Below are positions 1,715 to 50,600 of a DNA stretch of 64,000 bases, in pieces. Each line of letters opens with the position of its first letter. The stretch's first letter is position 1. The notes under the pieces are model-generated. The model saw only the letters and a list, made by a program, of their open reading frames with translations. It was not told the origin of the DNA and made no database searches. Position numbers and translations under genes: made by a program. Source of the DNA: Escherichia coli (GTDB lineage: Bacteria; Pseudomonadota; Gammaproteobacteria; Enterobacterales; Enterobacteriaceae). The stretch lies in the NCBI RefSeq assembly GCF_051903065.1, contig NZ_CP178438.1. One strand, given 5' to 3'.

Positions 1715-1884
1715 TGTCACACCTTATTTACATCCCTATAGATTATTTGCGTCAGCTCACAAATACGCTTTTTCCCTGGTAAAAAATGATTTCCTGCGTG
1801 ACTAAAACCCTTGTGCTCAATTGACAGTTTATTTTCTGCGGAGTAGTCTCTCATTTCATGGGACCGCTACCACGGAAAGGCAAC

Positions 1885-3564
1885 ATGAAACAGAAAATTA
1901 CGGATTACCTGGACGAAATCTACGGTGGAACATTTACCGCAACTCATTTACAGAAACTTGTAACGCGTCTTGAGAGTGCGAAACGATTAATTACACAGCG
2001 ACGTAAAAAACACTGGGATGAAAGTGACGTCGTGTTAATTACCTATGCCGATCAATTTCACAGTAATGGTTTAAAACCACTACCCACATTTAATCAGTTT
2101 TACCATCAATGGCTGCAATGCATTTTTTCACATGTTCATTTATTACCTTTTTACCCATGGTCATCTGATGATGGATTTTCGGTAATTGATTATCATCAGG
2201 TCGCCAGTGAAGCGGGGGAGTGGCAGGATATTCAGCAGCTCGGTGAATGCAGTCATTTAATGTTTGATTTTGTCTGCAACCATATGTCGGCAAAAAGTGA
2301 ATGGTTTAAAAACTATTTGCAACAGCTTCCGGGTTTTGAAGATTTTTTTATTGCGGTTGATCCGCAAACCGATCTCAGCGCTGTCACCCGTCCGCGTGCA
2401 TTACCGCTATTAACGCCGTTTCAAATGGATGATAATTCCACGCGCCATTTATGGACCACCTTTAGCGACGATCAAATTGACCTGAATTACCGTAGCCCTG
2501 ACGTGTTGCTGGCGATGGTGGATGTTTTGCTTTGTTACCTGGAAAAGGGCGCAGAGTATGTCCGCCTGGATGCCGTTGGCTTTATGTGGAAAGAGCCGGG
2601 AACAAGCTGCATCCATCTGGAAAAAACACATCTGATTATCAAACTGTTACGGTCGATTATTGATAACGTCGCGCCAGGCACAGTGATCATTACCGAGACC
2701 AATGTTCCGCATAAAGACAACATTGCTTACTTTGGCAACGGCGATGATGAAGCCCATATGGTGTATCAGTTCTCGTTGCCGCCGCTGGTGCTGCATGCGG
2801 TGCAAAAACAGAACGTCGAGGCGCTGTGCCAGTGGGCGCAAAGTCTGAGCTTGCCCTCCGGTAAAACGACCTGGTTTAACTTCCTCGCCTCTCACGATGG
2901 CATCGGGCTGAACCCACTGCGGGGCTTGTTACCAGAAAGCGAAATATTAGCGCTGGTCGAGGCATTACAGCAGGAAGGTGCATTAGTAAACTGGAAAAAT
3001 AATCCCGACGGTACGCGCAGTCCCTATGAAATAAATGTCACCTATATGGATGCGTTAAGCCGCCGCGAGAGTAGCGATGAAGAACGTTGCGCCAGGTTTA
3101 TCCTTGCCCATGCGATTTTGTTAAGTTTCCCCGGTGTGCCAGCGATATATATTCAAAGTATTCTGGGCTCGCGTAATGATTACGCAGGTGTCGAAAAACT
3201 CGGATATAACCGTGCGATTAACCGTAAAAAATATCACAGTGAAGAGATAACCCGAGAACTGAACGATGAAGCTACATTAAGGCATGCGGTATATCATGAG
3301 TTGTCGCGTTTAATTACACTTCGTCGCAGCCATAACGAGTTTCATCCGGATAATAATTTTACCATCGATACGGTTAATTCATCCGTAATGCGTATTCAAA
3401 GAAGTAACGCAGAGGGTAATTGTCTGACCGGATTGTTTAATGTCAGTAAAAATATTCAGCATGTAAATATTACTGGCCTGCACGGTCGGGATCTGATTAG
3501 TGAAGTTGATATATTGGGTAATAAAATAACGCTGCGCCCCTGGCAGGTTATGTGGATTAAATAA
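1885..3564 (+). CDS. ycjM: Glycoside phosphorylase (sucrose/glucosylglycerate phosphorylase family, GH13_18)
   Basis: 559-aa protein from Met at 1885 (MKQKITDYLDEIYGG…); first gene of the ycjM-V cluster. Confidence 0.85.
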   Translation: MKQKITDYLDEIYGGTFTATHLQKLVTRLESAKRLITQRRKKHWDESDVVLITYADQFHSNGLKPLPTFNQFYHQWLQCIFSHVHLLPFYPWSSDDGFSVIDYHQVASEAGEWQDIQQLGECSHLMFDFVCNHMSAKSEWFKNYLQQLPGFEDFFIAVDPQTDLSAVTRPRALPLLTPFQMDDNSTRHLWTTFSDDQIDLNYRSPDVLLAMVDVLLCYLEKGAEYVRLDAVGFMWKEPGTSCIHLEKTHLIIKLLRSIIDNVAPGTVIITETNVPHKDNIAYFGNGDDEAHMVYQFSLPPLVLHAVQKQNVEALCQWAQSLSLPSGKTTWFNFLASHDGIGLNPLRGLLPESEILALVEALQQEGALVNWKNNPDGTRSPYEINVTYMDALSRRESSDEERCARFILAHAILLSFPGVPAIYIQSILGSRNDYAGVEKLGYNRAINRKKYHSEEITRELNDEATLRHAVYHELSRLITLRRSHNEFHPDNNFTIDTVNSSVMRIQRSNAEGNCLTGLFNVSKNIQHVNITGLHGRDLISEVDILGNKITLRPWQVMWIK

Positions 3565-3577
3565 AAAGGAACATCTC

Positions 3578-4870
3578 ATGATTAAATCAAAAATCGTGCT
3601 GTTATCAGCACTGGTTTCCTGCGCCCTGATTTCAGGCTGTAAAGAAGAAAATAAAACCCATGTATCCATCGAATTTATGCATTCTTCGGTGGAGCAGGAG
3701 CGTCAGGCAGTTATCAGCAAATTGATTGCCCGTTTTGAAAAAGAAAACCCAGGTATCACCGTTAAACAAGTGCCCGTGGAAGAAGACGCTTATAACACCA
3801 AAGTCATCACCCTTTCACGTAGCGGCTCGCTGCCGGAAGTGATCGAAACCAGCCATGACTACGCCAAAGTTATGGATAAAGAGCAGCTTATCGATCGCAA
3901 AGCGGTTGCCACGGTCATCAGCAACGTTGGTGAAGACGCGTTTTACGATGGCGTACTGCGTATTGTGCGTACCGAAGATGGGAGTGCCTAGACCGGTGTT
4001 CCCGTCAGCGCCTGGATTGGCGGCATCTGGTATCGCAAAGATGTGCTGGCAAAAGCCGGGCTGGAGGAGCCGAAAAACTGGCAACAGCTGCTGGACGTTG
4101 CACAGAAACTGAATGACCCGGCGAATAAAAAATACGGTATTGCGCTGCCTACGGCAGAAAGCGTGCTGACGGAACAATCCTTCTCCCAGTTTGCGTTATC
4201 CAACCAGGCCAATGTCTTTAACTCTGCAGGCAAAATCACCCTTGATACACCAGAGATGATGCAAGCACTGACCTATTACCGCGACCTTGCCACCAACACC
4301 ATGCCGGGTTCTAACGATATCATGGAAGTGAAAGACGCCTTTATGAACGGCACCGCGCCGATGGCGATTTACTCCACCTATATCCTTCCGGCTGTGATTA
4401 AAGAAGGCGATCCGAAAAACGTCGGTTTCGTCGTGCCAACGGAGAAAAACTCTGCGGTCTACGGCATGTTGACCTCGCTGACCATTACCGCCGGGCAAAA
4501 GACCGAAGAAACGGAAGCAGCAGAAAAATTCGTCACCTTTATGGAGCAGGCGGACAACATTGCCGACTGGGTGATGATGTCGCCAGGCGCGGCACTGCCG
4601 GTGAACAAAGCGGTTGTCACTACCGCCACCTGGAAAGACAACGACGTGATCAAGGCGCTGGGTGAACTGCCGAATCAGTTAATTGGTGAACTGCCAAATA
4701 TTCAGGTTTTTGGCGCAGTAGGGGATAAAAACTTTACCCGCATGGGTGATGTGACGGGTTCTGGCGTGGTGAGTTCAATGGTGCATAACGTCACCGTGGG
4801 TAAAGCCGATCTCTCTACTACGCTGCAAGCGAGCCAGAAAAAACTGGATGAACTGATCGAACAGCACTAA
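3578..4870 (+). pseudogene. ycjN: Sugar ABC transporter periplasmic binding protein, interrupted by an in-frame TAG stop at 3989-3991
   Basis: ORFs 3578..3991 and 4043..4870 are in the same frame; translation across the stop is continuous (…RIVRTEDGSA*TGVPVSAWIGGIWYRKDVLAKAG…). N-terminus has a lipoprotein signal (LISGC). Confidence 0.8.
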
Positions 4871-29537: not shown

Positions 29538-30569
29538 TTAGCGGCCCTGTTCCGGCGGTGTAATGTTATCCATATACAGCGTCTGGCTGGGGAAGGCAAA
29601 GTCCGCGCCGTGTGACTGTACAATATCGATAATCTTCAAATAAACGTCTTGCTGTGCAGCAAGCCACTCAGCCCATACCGTGGTTTTGGTAAAGCAATAA
29701 ACCATAATATTCAATGACGAGTCAGCAAACTGGTTGAAATAAACCAGTAAGGTTTGTCGCTGGTCGATGGCCGGGTGATTTTTCAGCATCTCACGTACGG
29801 CTTCGACGATAACGCCCACTTTTGCCGCATCCTCATAACGTAAACCAATGGTCGTGGTAATGCGGCGGTTGGTCATTCGTCCTGGGTTTTCTACGCTGAT
29901 CGACGAAAACAGCGAGTTCGGTACGTACAATGGACGATTATCAAAGGTCGTAATTTTGGTAATTCGCCAGCCAATTTCCGCTACTGTACCTTCGATATTT
30001 CTGTCCGGTGAACGGATCCAGTCGCCAATACTGAAAGGACGGTCGAAATAGAGCATGATCCCGGAAAAGAAATTACTCAGAATATCTTTACCGGCCATAC
30101 CGACAGCCAGACCACCAATACCACCAAAGGTCAGCAAGCCAGAAAGGCTCATGCCGAAATGTTCGCCATAAAGCAGAACAAGCACCACAATAATGGTGAT
30201 TTTGATAATGCGCGACATAATCCGCGCACTGGTGATATCGCGACCTTTTTTAATCTGCTGTTTTTCAAACTGATTAATCAGCAGAAATAGCTTAATCGTC
30301 AGAATAACCGCAATCAGGGACGTACAGATAAAATCGATAACGCCTGGGGTGATAAATTTGAGTTTATAGTTTTCTATAACATAATTAATAATGCTACCAA
30401 CAGCACTGATAATTATGGTGTAGATTAAAAATTGCACCGCATGGAATAAAAAACCTTTTCTTTTACGATTTCCGCGGCGAAACCAAAAGCTCATCAGAAT
30501 CAATGCTGCGCAGCTACCGAAAATAATGACCAGATTAAGCGCATTATTTGTAAACAGTTCAGCGATCAT
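29538..30569 (-). CDS. ynaI: MscS-family mechanosensitive channel (343 aa)
   Basis: Multi-TM N-terminus plus MscS-like C-terminal region. Confidence 0.85.
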
Positions 30570-39415: not shown

Positions 39416-39979
39416 ATGAACCTTGACGACAAATCGCTGTTTCTTGACGCCATGGAAGATGTCCAGCCGCTGAAACGTGCTACCGATGTCCACTGGCATC
39501 CAACGCGTAACCAACGTGCGCCGCAGCGTATCGACACGCTGCAGCTTGATAATTTCCTCACTACCGGATTTCTCGACATTATCCCGCTAAGTCAGCCGCT
39601 GGAGTTTCGGCGGGAAGGGTTGCAACATGGGGTGCTGGATAAGCTGCGTAGTGGTAAATATCCGCAACAGGCGAGCCTGAATCTTTTGCGCCAGCCGGTG
39701 GAAGAGTGCCGCAAAATGGTGTTCAGTTTCATTCAACAAGCCCTGGCGGATGGTTTGCGTAACGTGCTGATTATTCATGGTAAAGGGCGGGATGATAAAT
39801 CGCATGCCAATATTGTCCGCAGCTATGTGGCGCGCTGGCTGACCGAATTTGATGATGTTCAGGCATATTGCACCGCACTACCGCATCATGGCGGCAGCGG
39901 GGCGTGTTACGTCGCACTACGTAAAACGGCGCAGGCGAAGCAAGAAAACTGGGAGCGCCACGCTAAGCGCAGTCGTTGA
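39416..39979 (+). CDS. smrA: Smr-domain DNA endonuclease (187 aa)
   Basis: Smr-domain sequence (LIIHGKGR region); position after abgR. Confidence 0.8.
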   Translation: MNLDDKSLFLDAMEDVQPLKRATDVHWHPTRNQRAPQRIDTLQLDNFLTTGFLDIIPLSQPLEFRREGLQHGVLDKLRSGKYPQQASLNLLRQPVEECRKMVFSFIQQALADGLRNVLIIHGKGRDDKSHANIVRSYVARWLTEFDDVQAYCTALPHHGGSGACYVALRKTAQAKQENWERHAKRSR

Positions 39980-39999: not shown

Positions 40000-41232
40000 T
40001 TATGCCGCCAGCACGCGGTTGCGTCCATCATTTTTCGCCCGATACAAAGCATCATCAACGCGTTTAAACAGTTCATCGATGCTTTCATTTCCTTCGTGAT
40101 GCGCCACACCAATGCTGACGGTAAAGCGTGGTAAGCCCGAAATACTCACTTTTGCCACGCTTACGCGGATAGTTTCAGCCAGCGAAAGTGCAGTATCCAG
40201 TGGGGTTCTTGGTAGCAATAAGACAAACTCTTCGCCTCCCCAACGAAACACCAAATCGCCTTTGCGAGCGCAACTTTCGAGGGTGCGGGCGAGGGCGCAT
40301 AACACCTCATCACCTTTAGAATGCCCATAGAGATCGTTAATGTGTTTAAAACGATCGGTGTCGATGAGCAACAAGCTGTAATCCTGAGCGATGGCGAGAT
40401 GCTGCATTTGGCCTGGTTCCGTAATGTGATAAAACTGTCGCCGATTCAGTAATCCGGTCATCGCGTCATGGTGAGCAGCATGTTCCAGCTGCTCCTCCAG
40501 CCGTTTTTGCTCAGTAATATCATGCACAATACATAACATGAGCTTGTCGCCATAAATTTCAATCGGTCCGGCATAGGTCTGCACATGACGAGTAGAACCA
40601 TCCGCCAGCCTATGAATAAAATTCAAAGGCTTATGACCACCGGGTAAATGCGAGATTTCATGCATGATAGGCATGACGCGACGCCCGAGCATATTAATTT
40701 CCCATGTATGTTTCTGGCACATCGTTTCATGGTTATAACCATAGAAATTGAGCGCGGCGAGGTTAGCATCGACGATTTGGCCATCTCGTGAGGGGTCAAT
40801 CAACAACATTGGTGCAGAGTTAGTCAGAAAAAAGCGCGCATAAAAACCTTGTTTTTTGCGCTGATAATTTGCCGAGCGACTGGCTTTTAAACCCAGCGTT
40901 GTCGGCGCTTCGATTCCTTCGAAAATAATCACCGGTTCTGCTTCTGTCAGCTTTCGCAAAACAAGCCGACAGCTCAATGCTGTTTCCTCTTCATTGCGCT
41001 GAACGGTGAGGATTTCGATAATATCGTGTTGGTTTTGCAGATCGGAGAGGTATTTCGGCAGTTCTTTTTGTGAGGAGACGGAATAGGGACCGGTTCGTAG
41101 CTGACTAAACGTGAGGTCTTGCATCAACAGTCGCGCCGCGCTATTGGCATAAATTAACTGTTCCTCAAAGGGCGAAACGATCCAGACAGGACTGGTGAGT
41201 AAGTCCAGGGTATTGAAGTTGTGCGTAATCAT
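40000..41232 (-). CDS. dgcM: Diguanylate cyclase with PAS domains (410 aa)
   Basis: GGDEF motif (RWGGEEF) in the C-terminal domain; N-terminal PAS-like region. Confidence 0.85.
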   Translation of the reverse strand: MITHNFNTLDLLTSPVWIVSPFEEQLIYANSAARLLMQDLTFSQLRTGPYSVSSQKELPKYLSDLQNQHDIIEILTVQRNEEETALSCRLVLRKLTEAEPVIIFEGIEAPTTLGLKASRSANYQRKKQGFYARFFLTNSAPMLLIDPSRDGQIVDANLAALNFYGYNHETMCQKHTWEINMLGRRVMPIMHEISHLPGGHKPLNFIHRLADGSTRHVQTYAGPIEIYGDKLMLCIVHDITEQKRLEEQLEHAAHHDAMTGLLNRRQFYHITEPGQMQHLAIAQDYSLLLIDTDRFKHINDLYGHSKGDEVLCALARTLESCARKGDLVFRWGGEEFVLLLPRTPLDTALSLAETIRVSVAKVSISGLPRFTVSIGVAHHEGNESIDELFKRVDDALYRAKNDGRNRVLAA

Positions 41233-41465
41233 TGAGATCCCATTATTTTTATCAATTTTTGTTGCTATCCGATCGCAATAAAGTCACGTCATATGATCAG
41301 ATAATTCTGATAATGATAGACGCTATTTAACACTTCACACGGTTTGTATACGGAAAAGCATTTTGCTTTTTGTATTCAATTTAGACAGAATTTTATTAAT
41401 CATTTCAGGGTAATGGGGTGATGAGATGTTGCGTAACAGGGCCAGAAGGCTAGACTACAAAATAA

Positions 41466-42470
<1,005 letters not shown>

Positions 42471-42516
42471 CAAAAGCAATTTTTCCGGCTGTCTGTATAC
42501 AAAAACGCCGCAAAGT

Positions 42517-42530
42517 TTGAGCGAAGTCAA
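42517..42530. promoter_or_regulatory. FNR activation site for fnrS
   Basis: TTGAGCGAAGTCAA (TTGAT-N4-ATCAA-like) centred about 42 bp upstream of the predicted fnrS 5' end. Confidence 0.6.
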
Positions 42531-42565
42531 TAAACTCTCTACCCATTCAGGGCAATATCTCTCTT

Positions 42566-42687
42566 GCAGGTGAATGCAACGTCAAGCGATGGGCGTTGCG
42601 CTCCATATTGTCTTACTTCCTTTTTTGAATTACTGCATAGCACAATTGATTCGTACGACGCCGACTTTGATGAGTCGGCTTTTTTTT
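42566..42687 (+). ncRNA. fnrS: sRNA FnrS
   Basis: GCAGGTGAATGCAACGTCAAGCGATGGGCGTTGCGCTCCATATTGTCTTACTTCC… ending in hairpin gccgactttgatgagtcggc plus T7; matches my memory of FnrS and its location between zntB and dbpA. Confidence 0.8.
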
Positions 42688-42947
42688 GCCTGTTATTTAT
42701 CAGCGTCTACCCTTTAAGAGTCCACCCAATGACCAGAGGGAAATATGACGACACTTATTTATTTGCAAATTCCTGTCCCTGAACCGATTCCTGGCGATCC
42801 TGTTCCAGTGCCCGATCCGATCCCTCGCCCGCAACCCATGCCTGACCCACCACCCGATGAAGAACCGATTAAATTGTCGCATCGTGAACGTAGATCTGCG
42901 AGGATACGCGCCTGCTAACTTTGCGTCGATGACCACGAGAATAGATT

Positions 42948-44321
42948 GTGACCGCTTTTTCTACCCTGAATGTTTTGCCTCCCGCCCAACTCACGAACCT
43001 TAATGAGTTGGGTTATTTAACCATGACGCCGGTGCAGGCCGCCGCGCTTCCGGCGATCCTTGCCGGAAAAGATGTTCGCGTGCAGGCGAAAACCGGCAGC
43101 GGCAAAACGGCGGCTTTTGGCCTCGGCTTGTTACAGCAAATTGATGCGTCGCTATTTCAAACCCAGGCTTTAGTGCTGTGTCCTACGCGTGAACTGGCGG
43201 ATCAGGTGGCAGGTGAATTGCGTCGGCTGGCGCGTTTTCTGCCAAATACCAAAATTTTGACGTTGTGCGGTGGTCAACCGTTCGGTATGCAGCGTGATTC
43301 GTTGCAACATGCGCCGCATATTATCGTGGCAACGCCGGGTCGTTTGCTGGATCACTTGCAAAAAGGCACGGTATCACTGGATGCGCTGAATACTTTGGTG
43401 ATGGATGAGGCCGACCGCATGCTGGATATGGGATTTAGCGATGCCATTGATGATGTCATCCGTTTTGCGCCTGCATCTCGACAGACGCTTCTGTTTTCGG
43501 CAACCTGGCCGGAAGCCATCGCTGCAATCAGCGGACGAGTGCAACGCGATCCTTTGGCGATTGAAATTGACTCAACAGATGCTTTGCCACCCATTGATCA
43601 ACAATTTTATGAGACATCCAGTAAAGGCAAAATTCCTCTGTTGCAACGGTTATTAAGCTTGCATCAGCCATCCTCTTGCGTGGTGTTTTGCAATACCAAA
43701 AAAGATTGCCAGGCTGTCTGCGACGCGCTGAATGAAGTAGGGCAAAGTGCATTGTCATTACACGGCGATTTGGAGCAACGCGATCGTGATCAGACCTTGG
43801 TACGTTTTGCTAACGGTAGCGCCCGTGCACTGGTCGCGACTGATGTTGCTGCGCGTGGTCTGGATATTAAATCGCTTGAGCTGGTGGTGAACTTTGAGCT
43901 GGCGTGGGACCCTGAAGTTCATGTACATCGCATCGGTCGTACAGCTCGTGCAGGAAATAGCGGTCTGGCGATCAGTTTCTGTGCTCCGGAAGAAGCACAG
44001 CGGGCCAATATCATTTCTGACATGTTGCAGATAAAACTTAACTGGCAAACGCCGCCAGCTAATAGTTCCATTGTGACGCTGGAAGCAGAAATGGCAACGT
44101 TGTGTATCGATGGCGGGAAAAAAGCCAAAATGCGCCCGGGTGATGTATTAGGTGCACTGACAGGAGATATCGGGCTTGATGGCGCAGATATTGGCAAAAT
44201 CGCCGTGCATCCGGCGCATGTCTATGTCGCGGTCCGTCAGGCTGTTGCTCATAAAGCATGGAAACAGTTACAGGGCGGGAAGATTAAAGGAAAAACGTGC
44301 CGGGTGCGGTTATTAAAATAA
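42948..44321 (+). CDS. dbpA: ATP-dependent RNA helicase DbpA (DEAD box, 457 aa)
   Basis: GTG start; Walker A AKTGSGKT, DEAD motif (VMDEAD), SAT, HRIGRTAR. Confidence 0.9.
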   Translation: MTAFSTLNVLPPAQLTNLNELGYLTMTPVQAAALPAILAGKDVRVQAKTGSGKTAAFGLGLLQQIDASLFQTQALVLCPTRELADQVAGELRRLARFLPNTKILTLCGGQPFGMQRDSLQHAPHIIVATPGRLLDHLQKGTVSLDALNTLVMDEADRMLDMGFSDAIDDVIRFAPASRQTLLFSATWPEAIAAISGRVQRDPLAIEIDSTDALPPIDQQFYETSSKGKIPLLQRLLSLHQPSSCVVFCNTKKDCQAVCDALNEVGQSALSLHGDLEQRDRDQTLVRFANGSARALVATDVAARGLDIKSLELVVNFELAWDPEVHVHRIGRTARAGNSGLAISFCAPEEAQRANIISDMLQIKLNWQTPPANSSIVTLEAEMATLCIDGGKKAKMRPGDVLGALTGDIGLDGADIGKIAVHPAHVYVAVRQAVAHKAWKQLQGGKIKGKTCRVRLLK

Positions 44322-44332
44322 TGAAATGTTGA

Positions 44333-44440
44333 ATTGCCGGGTGCAAGAGTAAACATCTTATTCGGGATTGCCGGATGCGACGCTGGCCGCGTCTTATCCG
44401 GCCTCCATAAGAGTAGCCCGATACGCTTGCGCATCGGGCG
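44333..44440. repeat. REP/BIME cluster between dbpA and ttcA
   Basis: Several gccggatgcgacgctggccgcgtcttatccggcc-type palindromic units. Confidence 0.7.
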
Positions 44441-44449
44441 CTATCCTGG

Positions 44450-45385
44450 TTATTTCACTTCAACCACATTCAGCCGTAACTCATCCAACTGATTTTCATC
44501 TTCTTCTGGCTGCCAGCCCGCCGGTTGTAGTGGGATCTCTTCGCGATCAAACGCCAGATCACCCCCGTTAACCACTTCAGAACCGTGGGTGATGCCTTTG
44601 AAATCGAACAGGTTGGTATCGCACAGATGCGACGGCACCACATTCTGCATCGCGCTGAACATCGTCTCGATACGCCCTGGATAACGTTTATCCCAGTCAC
44701 GCAACATGTCAGCAATCACCTGACGTTGCAGGTTAGGCTGTGAACCGCACAGGTTGCACGGAATAATCGGGAACGCTTTTGCATCGGCAAATCGCTGAAT
44801 ATCTTTCTCGCGGCAGTAGGCCAGCGGACGAATAACGATATGTTTGCCATCATCGCTCATCAGTTTCGGAGGCATACCTTTCATCTTGCCGCCGTAGAAC
44901 ATATTTAAGAACAACGTTTGCAGGATATCGTCACGATGGTGGCCCAACGCGATCTTCGTCGCCCCCAGTTCCGTTGCGGTGCGATAAAGGATACCGCGAC
45001 GTAGCCGAGAACACAGTGAGCAAGTGGTTTTGCCCTCTGGAATCTTCTCTTTCACGATACCGTAAGTGTTCTCTTCAACAATCTTGTACTCAACGCCCAG
45101 CTTTTCAAGATACTCGGGCAGAACGTGTTCCGGGAAGCCCGGTTGCTTTTGATCGAGGTTAACAGCCACCAGCGAAAAATTGATTGGCGCGCTTTGCTGC
45201 AAATTGCGCAGAATCTCCAGCATGGTATAGCTGTCTTTACCCCCGGAGAGGCAAACCATGATGCGATCGCCTTCTTCAATCATATTGAAGTCAGCAATGG
45301 CTTCGCCCACGTTACGACGCAGGCGTTTTTGTAATTTGTTCAGATTGTATTGTTCTTTCTTGCTAATTTCTTGATTTTGCGACAT
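44450..45385 (-). CDS. ttcA: tRNA 2-thiocytidine(32) synthetase TtcA (311 aa)
   Basis: PP-loop motif (SGGKDS) and CxxC pairs. Confidence 0.9.
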
Positions 45386-45526
45386 TTAAAAGCGACTCAA
45401 TTCGTTATATGGCATCAGAAGAGTATGCGTCATGCCGGAACGCCCAGCATAAGAAATCTGATATAAAAACTGTGGCGTGTATGGTACGGATTAGAGGGGA
45501 AAATGTCAGCACATTTGCGAAATGAA

Positions 45527-45555
45527 TCAAAAAGCCCGCAGCAATGTGCGGGCGT
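45527..45555 (-). terminator. Rho-independent terminator of uspF
   Basis: Minus-strand gcccgcacattgctgcgggc followed by TTTTT just downstream of the uspF stop. Confidence 0.6.
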
Positions 45556-45560
45556 TAGTG

Positions 45561-46076
<516 letters not shown>

Positions 46077-46099
46077 TTAGATCAAAGGAGGAAGAATAA

Positions 46100-46128
46100 G
46101 CAGAAAAAGCCCGCCATAACAGCGGGCA
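46100..46128 (-). terminator. Rho-independent terminator of ompN
   Basis: Minus-strand gcccgctgttatggcgggc followed by TTTTT. Confidence 0.6.
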
Positions 46129-46135
46129 GGAGGAT

Positions 46136-47269
46136 TTAGAACTGATAAACCAGACCTAAAGCGACAATATCATCGGTAGAGATGCCGTTGGCAGCGTAGA
46201 AACTGTCATCTTCATCCAACAGGTTGATTTTATAGTCAACATAAGTGGACATGTTTTTATTGAAATAGTAAGTCGCGCCAACATCGGCGTATTTAACCAG
46301 ATCTTTATCATCAACACCTGCCGGGTTGTCTGCACCACCGGCAGCGTGCAGGTCACGGCCTTTAGACATCAGGAAAGAGACTGCCGGACGCAGACCAAAA
46401 TCAAACTGGTACTGTGCAGTGACTTCAAAGTTCTGGGTTTTGTTTGCAACAGCATAATCGCTGTCGCCAAACGGGGTCATATTACGCGTTTCTGAATACA
46501 TGGTTGCCAGGTAAATATTGTTAGCATCGTATTTTAGCCCAGCAGTCCACGCGTCTGCTTTATCACCACCCGCCGCAGTATGGTTAACCTGGTCATTGGT
46601 GCGGTCAGAAGAGGTGTATGCCGCACCAGCGCTAAAGCCCATGCCTAAATCATATGTTGTGGAAAGACCCCAGCCGTCACCGTTTTCATGGCGAACATCA
46701 CGTCCGTTGTTGGTGCCTTCCTGACCATTACTGGCTCCTTCGTTGTTACCTTGATACTGCACCGCGAAGTTCAGACCATTTACCAGACCGAAGAAATCAG
46801 TATTACGATAAGTCGCGACGCCATTGGCTCGACCAGTCATAAAGTTGTCTGCATTGGTATAAGAGTCACCGCCAAATTCAGGCTGCATATCGGTCCAGCC
46901 TTCGATGTCGTACATTACGCCATAATTACGTCCGTAATCGAAAGAACCGTAATCTGCAAATTTCAGTCCGGCAAATGCCAGACGGGTCCATGACTGGTTT
47001 TTTGAAGATTCAGTGTTGTTTGCCTGAATATTGTATTCCCATTGACCGTAGCCAGTAAGTTGATCGTTAATTTGGGTTTCGCCTTTAAAACCCAGACGCG
47101 CATAGCTCTGGTCGCCATCTTTCGCTGAATTATCAGAAAAATAATGCAGGCCATCAACTTTGCCATACAGATCTAATTTGTTGCCGTCTTTATTATAAAC
47201 TTCGGCTGCATGTGCAGCACCTGCGGCGAGCAGGGCAGGAATTAAAAGTGCCAGTACTTTGCTTTTCAT
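46136..47269 (-). CDS. ompN: Outer membrane porin OmpN (OmpC/F family, 377 aa)
   Basis: Signal peptide [21 protein letters not shown], general porin sequence, C-terminal …LVYQF. Confidence 0.9.
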
Positions 47270-47496
47270 TGAATAAATCCTTTAGTTATTTTATTTGCCT
47301 TTTATCCCCATTTCGGGGAGTGAAAACATCCTAAAGGAGAAGTTCAGTTAGCCGATAAATATCATTTGTTACGCCTTAAGTAAAACCTTAATCAAATAAT
47401 TCCTCTGAAATGATAATAAGTCTGGTGAATGTATCGAAGATAATACATACAAAATAAAAATTATACTTTTAATTTTCTATACGTTATTCTGCGCGG

Positions 47497-47608
47497 GTTA
47501 TATGCCTTTATTGTCACAGATTTTATTTTTTGTTGGGCCATTGCATTGCCACTGATTTTCCAACATATAAAAAGACAAGCCCGAACAGTCGTCCGGGCTT
47601 TTTTTTAG
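47497..47608 (+). ncRNA. micC: sRNA MicC
   Basis: GTTATATGCCTTTATTGTCACAGATTTTATTTT… ending in hairpin gcccgaacagtcgtccgggc plus T8; matches my memory of MicC, which lies between ompN and ydbK. Confidence 0.8.
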
Positions 47609-47634
47609 AATTGGATAATCCTTATCCAGAGCAT

Positions 47635-50600
47635 TTAATCGGTGTTGCTTTTTTCCGCTTTTCCGGCCATTTGTGCCAGGAAGTCATAGCGTTTTTGCAA
47701 ATCAGCTGCAGCATCTTTCCATAACTGTTCTGCCACTTCTGGCTGCTGCGAATTCAGACGACGGAAACGTTGCTCGTGAAGTAACGTTTCTTCCAGTGCT
47801 TCTGACGGCGGGCGTGAATCCAGCGCCAGCGGCAGTTTGCCTTCATCGGCACGACGCGGATCGAAGCGATATAGCGGCCAGAAGCCGGTAGCTGTGAGTT
47901 GGCGCATCTGGTCATGGCTGAGTGCCAGATCGTAACCATGCTCTTCACACGGGCTATAAGCAATGATCAGCGATGGTCCCGGATACGCTTCCGCTTCCTG
48001 AATCGCTTTCACCGTCTGGTTCAGTTGCGCGCCGAGAGAAATCTGCGCCACATAAACATGACCGTACATCATCATACTGACGCCAAGATCTTTACGCGCT
48101 TTACGTTTGCCGTGCTCGCCAAATTTAGTTACTGCACCCAGCGGTGTCGCTTTCGACGCCTGACCACCGGTGTTGGAATAGCATTGCGTATCCAGCACCA
48201 GAATGTTGACGTTTTCCGTCAAACTCAATACATGATCCAGACCGCCAAAGCCGATATCGTAAGCCCAGCCGTCGCCACCAATCAGCCAGATTGATTTTTC
48301 TACCAGTGCATCTGCGTCACGCAGCAGTTCATGTGCTTCGGCAACATCGTTGAGTTGCTGGCGTAAAGCTGCAACCTGATCACGACGAACCTCTGGCGTA
48401 GCGTCTGATTTCAACGCCGTCAGTAATTCCGCCGGGATTTTATCGGCAAATTGATCCAGCAGACGCAGCACGCGGACACGGTGTTGATCGACCGTCAGGC
48501 GGAAACCCAGGCCAAATTCGGCGTTATCTTCAAACAGCGAGTTCGCCCATGCCGGCCCGCGACCGTTGGCATCGGTAGTATACGGTGTAGAGGGCAGGTT
48601 ACCGCCATAAATTGAAGAACAGCCAGTGGCGTTAGCGATCAACATCCGGTCGCCATAGAGCTGAGTCAGCAATTTAATATACGGTGTCTCGCCACAACCG
48701 GAGCAAGCACCGGAATATTCAAACAGCGGTGTAATCAGCTGCGATGTACGAATATCAATACGTTCCAGTTTGCTACGGTCGATTTCTGGCAGGTTGAGGA
48801 AGAAATCGTAATTGATTTTCTCTTCTTCGACATGTTCCAGGCGCGACATCATATTGATGGCTTTAATCTCTGGATTCTGACGGTCTTTCGCCGGGCAAAC
48901 TTCGACGCACAGGTTACAACCGGTGCAATCTTCCGGAGCCACCTGCAAGACATATTTCTGCCCGCGCATATCACGCGATTTCACATCCAGCGAATGCAGG
49001 CTGGCAGGGGCGTTTTCCATCGCTTCAGGCGGCACCACTTTTGCGCGAATAGCTGAGTGTGGGCAAGCGGCAACGCAGTGGTTACATTGGGTACAGAGTT
49101 CCTCTTTCCAGATGGGGATCTCTTCGGCGATATTGCGTTTTTCCCAGCGTGTAGTGCCCATCGGCCAGGTGCCGTCTGGCGGCAGCGCCGAAACGGGGAG
49201 GGCATCACCAAGCCCGGCGAGCATCGCAGCGGTTACGGTTTTCACGAAATCAGGGGCGGCATCGGAAACCACAGGCGGTCGATTGGCGCTGTGCGGATTA
49301 ACCGGCTGCAACGGAACTTCTTCCACGGATTCACGCGCCAGCGCCAGAGCCTGCCAGTTGCGCTCCACCAGATCCTGACCTTTGCTACTGTAACTTTTGG
49401 CAATCGCACCCTGCAATTCTGCGAGGGCGCTATCGCCAGGCAGAATTTGCGTCAGATGGAAAAAAGCCATCTGCATGACGGTATTAATACGGGCCGCCAG
49501 GCCACATTCGCGGGCGATTTTCGCTGCGTTAATCACATAGAAGCGCGCTTTTTTCTGGTTTAGCACGGCCTGAACTTCCTGCGGCAAGCGCGACCACACT
49601 TCATCTGCGCTGTACGGCGTGTTGAGCAGGAAAATGCCGCCAGGTTTTAAACGCTCAGCCATCTGATATTTATCGATAAACTGCAACTGGTGGCAGCCAA
49701 CAAAATCAGCCTGGGAAATGAGATAAGCGGAACGAATCGGCTGTTCGCTCACGCGAAGGTGAGAAACCGTCAGGCCGCCCGCCTTTTTGGAGTCGTAAAC
49801 AAAATAGCCCTGTGCGTACCACGGCGTGGAATTACCGATAATCTTGATATTGTTTTTGGTCGCGGAAACGCTGCCATCACTACCAAGGCCATAAAACAAG
49901 GCTTCCAGTTTCGCCGAGTTTGGCAGGGTGTTTTCCGGCAACGGCAGTGACAGATTGGTCACATCATCGTAAATACCAACCGTAAAGCGCGCTTTCGGTT
50001 TAGCCGCGTTGAGCTCGGCAAATACCGCCAGTACACAGTCCGGGCCAAATTCTTTGGATGAAAGACCATAGCGCCCACCAATGACACGGGGCAGAGTTTC
50101 GCGCTCGCCATTATTAAAGGCTTCTGCCAGTGCGGTCATTACATCCAGATAGAGCGGTTCTGCCTGGGCACCGGGTTCTTTGGTTCTGTCCAGTACCGCC
50201 ACGCTGCGTACGGATCCCGGCAGAGCTTGCAGCAAGTGTTTGGCGGAGAAGGGACGGTACAGGCGAACTTTCAGCACGCCAACTTTTTCGCCACGGGTTA
50301 GCAATTCATCAACCACTTCTTCACAGGTGCCAATGGCAGAGCCCATCAGGATAATCACCCGTTCCGCTTGCGGATGCCCGTAATATTCAAACGGCTGATA
50401 CTGACGACCTGTCGCGGCAGAGAAATCATTCATCGCCTGTTCAACATGGTCATAGACCGCGTTGTACCATGGGTTGGTGGCTTCGCGAGACTGGAAATAA
50501 GTGTCAGGATTGGCTGACGTACCGCGGATCACCGGATGTTCCGGGTTGAGCGCCCGGGCGCGATGAGCATCAATTTCGGCCTGCGGCATGAGATCAAGAA

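Follow-up and report, generated by a model that had tools for sequence, protein, structure and literature searches.

We found that the ttcA–uspF region of the 64,000-nt stretch of E. coli DNA analysed here (the window) is the empty chromosomal attB of Rac-type lambdoid prophages in a non-K-12 strain, a point on which we have next to no doubt. An empty site with its core inside ttcA is already published and is an ordinary state of the locus. Upstream of ttcA, the region also holds a 50-nt block (45467–45516, minus strand) that is a relic of an integrase gene and not a gene itself, and that may now serve as the ttcA promoter. Taken as a whole, the explanation that joins an empty attB with a domesticated integrase relic as putative ttcA promoter is one that we hold with high confidence.

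In the window, ttcA, encoding the tRNA 2-thiocytidine-32 synthetase (311 aa), occupies 44450–45385 on the minus strand, and uspF, encoding universal stress protein F (144 aa), lies upstream of it at 45561–45995, also on the minus strand. Both were called from their open reading frames and are annotated at the same coordinates in the near-identical genome NZ_AP045789.1. The next minus-strand gene after uspF is ompN (46136–47269). The preliminary description had placed ttcA next to uspF at a distance of about 175 bp; the reading frames, the alignment and the annotated relative agree and give exactly 175 bp (45386–45560). This spacer is the K-12 DNA that flanks Rac attR and ttcC, save for 1 nt in an A run. 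It holds no integrase or other prophage gene, and no second copy of the att core was found between ttcA and uspF. A terminator scan placed the intrinsic terminator of uspF, GCCCGCACATTGCTGCGGGC followed by a T run, at 45524–45553 (minus strand). Between the integrase-like block and the ttcA start there is also a small inverted repeat, ATGCCGG-aacgc-CCAGCAT (45432–45450), which reads AUGCUGG..CCGGCAU on the ttcA strand. The resulting 7-bp stem could be a leader hairpin or an operator; Citrobacter and other Escherichia species have a stem of other sequence (GCCGGA..TCCGGC) at the equivalent place. An Rfam scan of 42300–47800 returned FnrS (42566–42683, plus strand, between zntB and ynaL/dbpA) and MicC (47494–47614, plus strand, between ompN and ydbK/nifJ) only, both as full-length matches.

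The gene order in MG1655 is ttcA, Rac (intR, xisR … ynaE, ynaM), ttcC, uspF, ompN and ydbK, where Rac is a cryptic prophage of 23,060 bp and ttcC a 51-bp pseudogene. Thus, K-12 carries Rac between ttcA and uspF, as the preliminary description had stated, and does not share their adjacency. Window positions 40000–45335 gave an ungapped alignment with K-12 that ends at the last base ahead of attL (98.93% identity), and positions 45336–50000 aligned to K-12 from the first attR base (98.74% identity). In K-12, the end points of the two alignments are separated by exactly 23,060 bp, which is the amount of DNA absent from the window; the published size of the Rac excision is likewise 23,060 bp (PMC11014345). 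K-12 attL and attR have a 43-nt imperfect repeat in common, the first 26 nt of which are identical (TTGTTCAGGTTGTATTGTTCTTTCTT). The alignment with attL and attR that had been proposed for 45300–45600 located the unoccupied attB core at 45336–45361, a stretch of 26 bp within ttcA codons 9–17, and the core common to the window and both K-12 copies reads TTGTTCAG[G/A]TTGTATTGTTCTTTCTT. The window core is present once and matches K-12 attL and attR at 25 of 26 bases; the single mismatch, A at 45344 where both K-12 copies have G, is synonymous in ttcA. The earlier proposal of an unoccupied attachment site thus stands, and the core falls within the interval given there (45300–45560), but it lies inside ttcA and not in the 175-bp spacer. 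This position agrees with the Rac core described inside the 5′ codons of ttcA by Liu et al. 2015 (PMC4632033), and the same 26 bp are annotated as attB for phage Rac-SA53. IntR is predicted to recombine the window attB with attP. When 45300–45600 was compared by BLAST with a phage collection, all matches were prophage records extending into bacterial flanking DNA.

Upstream of the core, the window sequence is of the attR/ttcC type of K-12. Its TtcA N-terminus, MSQNQEIS, is that of the K-12 ttcC fragment and corresponds to the prophage-free TtcA′ form, which Liu et al. 2015 (PMC4632033) describe in strains without rac and in K-12 cured of it. K-12 TtcA begins with MQENQQITKK and differs from the window N-terminus at four residues; at K-12 attL, the phage-type codons 1–8 (MQENQQIT) lie next to intR. 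With no phage at the site, ttcA retains its host-type N-terminus, and 175 bp separate the gene from uspF. Adjoining the core, 45364–45376 (plus strand, ttcA codons 4–8) matches the IHF consensus TAAnnnnTTGATW by pattern (TAATTTCTTGATT). In K-12, IHF is bound at the ttcA/attL copy, and the ttcC/attR copy has the consensus but no IHF peak (PMC8407004). The window site has the ttcC/attR sequence form.

Could the strain be a K-12 derivative cured of Rac, in the laboratory or spontaneously? Precise excision of Rac leaves exactly such a junction and such a TtcA′ N-terminus. However, comparison with MG1655 shows mismatches at 57 of 5336 positions in one flank and at 57 of 4667 in the other, a divergence of 1.1–1.3% that we take as already refuting this origin. 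A ydbA-like autotransporter gene (about 56986–63627) is split by IS1A, whose transposase lies at about 60754–61451 in the annotation of NZ_AP045789.1, and this is not one of the K-12 insertions. The fea, tynA and paa genes are absent between ydbL and the ydbA-like gene, which directly adjoin; in K-12, the feaR-feaB-tynA-paa cluster lies after ydbL. Over 39500–64000, NZ_AP045789.1 (human faeces, Ecuador) is 100% identical to the window; among the genomes matching this interval at 100%, two from human isolates do so in one piece and one from a meat isolate in three pieces. Over 12–50000, NZ_AP045789.1 differs by two mismatches and one indel. Together with A45344 in the core, these best matches leave a cured K-12 practically no chance. 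Thus, given the divergence, the IS1A and the missing fea/tynA/paa genes, the window comes from a non-K-12 lineage, as had been proposed partly on the strength of an IS1 in ydbA that our analysis confirms. The near-identical genome 23CRST027 also shows an IS3-family IS1397 in the ompG–ycjW interval and a ycjN gene with an internal stop, corresponding to window positions of about 14.6–16.0 kb and 3.6–4.9 kb (coordinates ±11 nt).

An assembly that collapsed the att repeats would also bring ttcA next to uspF, and the 26–43 bp common to attL and attR are in principle collapsible. Yet an uninterrupted ttcA–uspF junction is found in 2488 of 5426 complete E. coli genomes (~46%), three genomes match window positions 39500–64000 at 100%, and other Escherichia species and Citrobacter, where uspF also lies directly upstream of ttcA, show the same gene order. 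We therefore consider an artefact hardly conceivable, and the presence of the adjacency in these other species indicates that it is old. The window strain is marked as Rac-free, like about 46% of complete E. coli genomes, a trait that carries little weight. When junction types were read from 30 evenly spaced rows of the genome ranking, 14 matched along the full length of the query and showed the junction (in one of them, an IS200 sits in the spacer), 10 started matching exactly at the first core base, 45336, as expected of occupied sites, 5 (~17%) started at 45489 in the middle of the block, and one was otherwise truncated. In E. coli TST3 (NZ_CP154406.1), IS200C is inserted within the ttcA–uspF stretch. 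A second attachment site at 45489 was considered and rejected, as the one inspected genome of these five, E. coli MCJCHV-1, shows a decayed Rac remnant: a K-12-type attL, a 231-bp int 3′ fragment that includes the block, and unrelated DNA in place of attR. This remnant (1798–4000 of the compared piece) also holds a DUF1627 fragment and a frameshifted metal ABC permease gene; attR, ttcC and half of the host-side block are gone.

The integrase relic, which the preliminary description does not mention, emerged from a repeat search in K-12, in which 51 nt of the uspF-side flank paired with 51 nt inside intR at 76% identity. The window equivalent of this match is 45466–45516. Translated on the ttcA strand, the relic reads K-C-A-D-I-F-P-S-N-P-Y-H-T-R-H-S-F, against K-R-A-G-I-R-R-R-N-P-Y-H-T-R-H-T-F in IntR, and the codons of the fossil correspond to K-x-A-x-I-x-x-x-N-P-Y-H-T-R-H-S-F, the HxxR box of tyrosine recombinases. 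Local alignment of the spacer with intR scored 42, compared to 21.2 ± 2.4 for shuffled spacers (maximum 38; 0 of 2000 reached 42). Consistent with this similarity, an nhmmer profile built from 12 non-redundant int 3′ regions matched 45467–45516 (E = 3.7e-7) and nothing else in the spacer. Inspection by eye for more sequence of int or phage-spacer type in the stretch from the block to the start codon of E. coli ttcA gained no support from this profile, which had no match there, and we make no case for a phage origin of the proximal 80 nt or of the TtcA′ N-terminus. An intact recombinase frame is not present: about 17 codons around the HxxR box are left, a stop follows 12 codons on, and the catalytic Tyr is missing. 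A Pfam scan of the 53-aa translation across the relic returned no family, the fragment being too short. The open-access text of Liu et al. 2015 (PMC4632033) and of a prophage review mentions neither the relic in the spacer nor a ttcA promoter. K-12 also keeps the block on the attR side (30091–30141 of the compared K-12 piece), upstream of ttcC; there it faces through ttcC toward ynaM/ynaE and, if it is a promoter, may drive those genes.

How widespread is the block? Scanning one genome per species for degenerate codons of KKEQYNLNK yielded 120 ttcA loci from Escherichia, Citrobacter, Salmonella, Enterobacter, Kosakonia, Pantoea, Erwinia, Edwardsiella, Yersinia and others. The motif CCGTACCATA lies at most 400 nt upstream of the ATG in 106 of these 120 loci (~90%); in the 64-kb window it occurs once, against 0.08 expected. 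The loci form a graded series, with a full int gene next to ttcA in some species, C-terminal fragments in many and the bare block in most others. The block is absent in Kosakonia cowanii, K. oryzendophytica, Yokenella and two Phytobacter species. Salmonella enterica subsp. diarizonae and arizonae have a longer, more int-like relic (IntR residues ~313–358) about 80 nt upstream of ttcA, together with a phage-type TtcA N-terminus (MQDNQ..), and in Salmonella LT2 a further small gene, STM1653, separates ynaF/uspF from ydaO/ttcA.

Such a distribution could also be left by a neutral fossil without function, which would look conserved through frequent integration and decay and through being the part of int most easily detected. 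In favour of a neutral fossil, variation among relics is concentrated at former third-codon positions, many species carry longer and evidently recent int fragments, and the promoter consensus described below is weak; many of the relics may be young, copied from different int alleles, and this would make the block look more conserved than it is. However, several features of the decayed loci speak against it: (i) when coverage was computed with a 780-nt int-plus-spacer profile over 91 non-redundant loci without intact int, it peaked at the block (~83 of 91 loci) and fell to ~37–50 loci for the 200 nt between block and ttcA, a peak that is exaggerated because a profile search finds the most conserved part of int most easily, but which means that the block is retained about twice as often as the DNA between it and ttcA; (ii) that intervening DNA was shortened, the block starting at about −234 from the ATG in intact genes and at −224 to −50 in 57 of 80 non-redundant loci; and (iii) an old relic is orthologous between Escherichia and Citrobacter, and in it the spacer between the two candidate promoter hexamers has mutated and the hexamers have not. 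Upstream of the block, coverage declines steadily. Because coverage peaks at the block instead of rising monotonically toward ttcA, erosion was not one-sided. By eye, without computation, the sequences joined 2–25 nt past the candidate −10 element differ between genera and fall into about 15 or more types. The E. coli block is situated upstream of a ttcA 5′ end of the host type, which the block-less genera (Kosakonia, Phytobacter, Yokenella) also have; simple prophage decay at attL fails to explain this arrangement.

Intact int genes point in the same direction. In the 12 non-redundant uninterrupted int 3′ regions, the codons GTA AAA, GCT, ATT and AAT CCG TAC CAT are invariant, whereas other invariant residues use 3–5 codons. 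These frozen synonymous sites, which protein function alone leaves unexplained, are a further argument against a neutral fossil, as is the lack of the block in paralogues with other targets. Such paralogous integrases (933W, phiP27, Gifsy-2, Stx phages, and a Yersinia and a Klebsiella phage) are ~60% identical, read K-A-Y-Q-S-R-H-T-Y with free codon use, and have no TACCAT. They also carry Gln at the position of the first HxxR His of IntR (YQSRHT vs YHTRHT); this His, like the Asn-Pro beside it, is confined to the ttcA-targeting clade. We considered the reverse route, in which a phage captured a host promoter, and rejected it, the C-terminal 75 residues of IntR all being homologous to integrases with other targets. 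Overall, we judge a neutral fossil unlikely. Conservation of the block is probably due to selection, and the combined claim that it derives from int and is under selection is one that we consider likely.

What does the block do? A promoter scan of the spacer found a single promoter-like site facing ttcA, with a candidate −35 element CTGACA (45504–45509, minus strand; CTGGCA in most other species) and a candidate −10 element TACCAT (45481–45486, minus strand), the latter built from the Tyr-His codons of the integrase box. The hexamers are 17 nt apart and predict a transcription start near 45474 on the minus strand. With spacing inside the 16–18 nt range, they match the sigma-70 consensus at 9 of 12 positions, a weak fit that is at chance level when considered alone; taken singly, each hexamer has about 4 of 6 matches, the K-12 int copy of the −35 (CTGGTA) has 3 of 6, and the scan as a whole gave 2 sites against 1.7 expected from shuffles. 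Conservation adds to the case. Across species the −35 is CTGGCA, CTGGTA or CTGACA, and among 80 non-redundant block-bearing loci the −10 is TACCAT in 77 and TATCAT, TAACAT or TACCCT in one each, all of which keep A2 and T6. In Escherichia and Citrobacter, the sequence between the hexamers has diverged and the hexamers and their spacing are unchanged. No usable entry for a ttcA transcription start turned up in the accessible part of the data accompanying the Cappable-seq, ROSE, Shigella M90T and Mendoza-Vargas studies. Readings of the block as a sigma-54, sigma-32, sigma-E or sigma-S promoter, judged by eye against the consensus sequences of these factors, did not fit. On this evidence, we see it as an even question whether the block acts as the ttcA promoter.

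Alternatively, the block may be functional in another way: as a transcription-factor operator, as an RNA element of a longer ttcA leader, or as a distal attP site for the integrase or an accessory protein. Conservation spans ~45 nt and thus extends beyond the two hexamers, with ATCCG ahead of the −10 and ACACGCCA behind it also conserved, and the frozen codons of intact int would also fit a phage DNA-binding site. However, a phage arm site would not account for the persistence of the block in hosts that lack a prophage, and block and core are separated by anything from ~60 to 230 nt. The block has no typical inverted or direct repeat evident, as an operator might. For an RNA element, conservation is in the primary sequence with no sign of a structured RNA, and no Rfam family falls in the spacer. 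We rate these non-promoter functions, taken together, as fairly unlikely.

The promoter reading suggests the following mechanism. IntR-type tyrosine integrases would recombine at the 26-bp core in the 5′ end of ttcA, swapping ttcA codons 1–8 and everything upstream for phage DNA. The incoming DNA would place a new N-terminus, supplied by the phage, in front of the core, preceded by a spacer of 51 bp and the 3′ end of int. Because integration at codons 9–17 severs the upstream DNA, a promoter at the end of int would keep ttcA on in lysogens: ttcA-targeting phages may carry a sigma-70-type promoter (CTGGCA, 17 nt, TACCAT) within the 3′ part of int, which would read into ttcA and maintain its expression once integration displaces the gene's own promoter. 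On prophage decay, the block would be retained since ttcA depends on it. The 50-nt block of the window would then be a domesticated relic that now forms the ttcA promoter or an essential part of it. The general form of this proposal, that Rac-type phages carry a ttcA promoter in the HxxR codons of int and that most Enterobacterales, the prophage-free window strain among them, use the domesticated 50-nt fragment, we put forward tentatively, at slightly less than an even chance.

How does this site compare to known systems? The Rac site in ttcA of K-12 and of the rac-like CP-933R and Sp10 (PMC4632033) agrees with the window site in its 26-bp core and in its position among the 5′ codons of ttcA, and in K-12 likewise has an IHF consensus next to the core; the TtcA′ N-terminus of the window is that of cured K-12 and other rac-free strains. 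The window differs in being empty and in its one synonymous core base, A45344. Similar to SXT at prfC and to the dusA elements, Rac-type phages enter the first codons of their target and supply a replacement N-terminus, as seen at K-12 attL, and they plausibly also supply a promoter. In SXT/prfC and dusA, promoter activity has been measured, whereas the Rac-type candidate is known here from sequence; it also differs in lying inside the integrase coding sequence and in having copies that persist in element-free hosts. Contrary to these systems, e14 and phage 21, which integrate at the 3′ end of icd, and integrators into tRNA genes duplicate the end of their target gene. In these phages, a surrogate copy of the displaced gene end keeps the target intact and excision swaps a few residues; since the 3′ end is what is replaced, such elements need no promoter. 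Finally, fragments of integrase genes at integration hot spots have been described as decayed or 'grounded' prophages (PMC6379469), and Int C-terminal fragments likewise adjoin ttcA in many Enterobacterales, including E. coli MCJCHV-1. In contrast, the window fragment is an internal piece of 50 nt kept after loss of DNA on both sides. Because this internal piece outlasted the DNA around it, we favour exaptation over passive decay.

If the block is the ttcA promoter, codons for the catalytic site of an integrase would at the same time encode a promoter, a clear instance of dual coding, and the continued expression of ttcA in lysogens would be explained. It would also mean that the promoter of a core gene has been replaced by a mobile element across a whole bacterial order. 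A tRNA-modification gene with a housekeeping role would then have acquired its promoter from phages that repeatedly integrated next to it and decayed.
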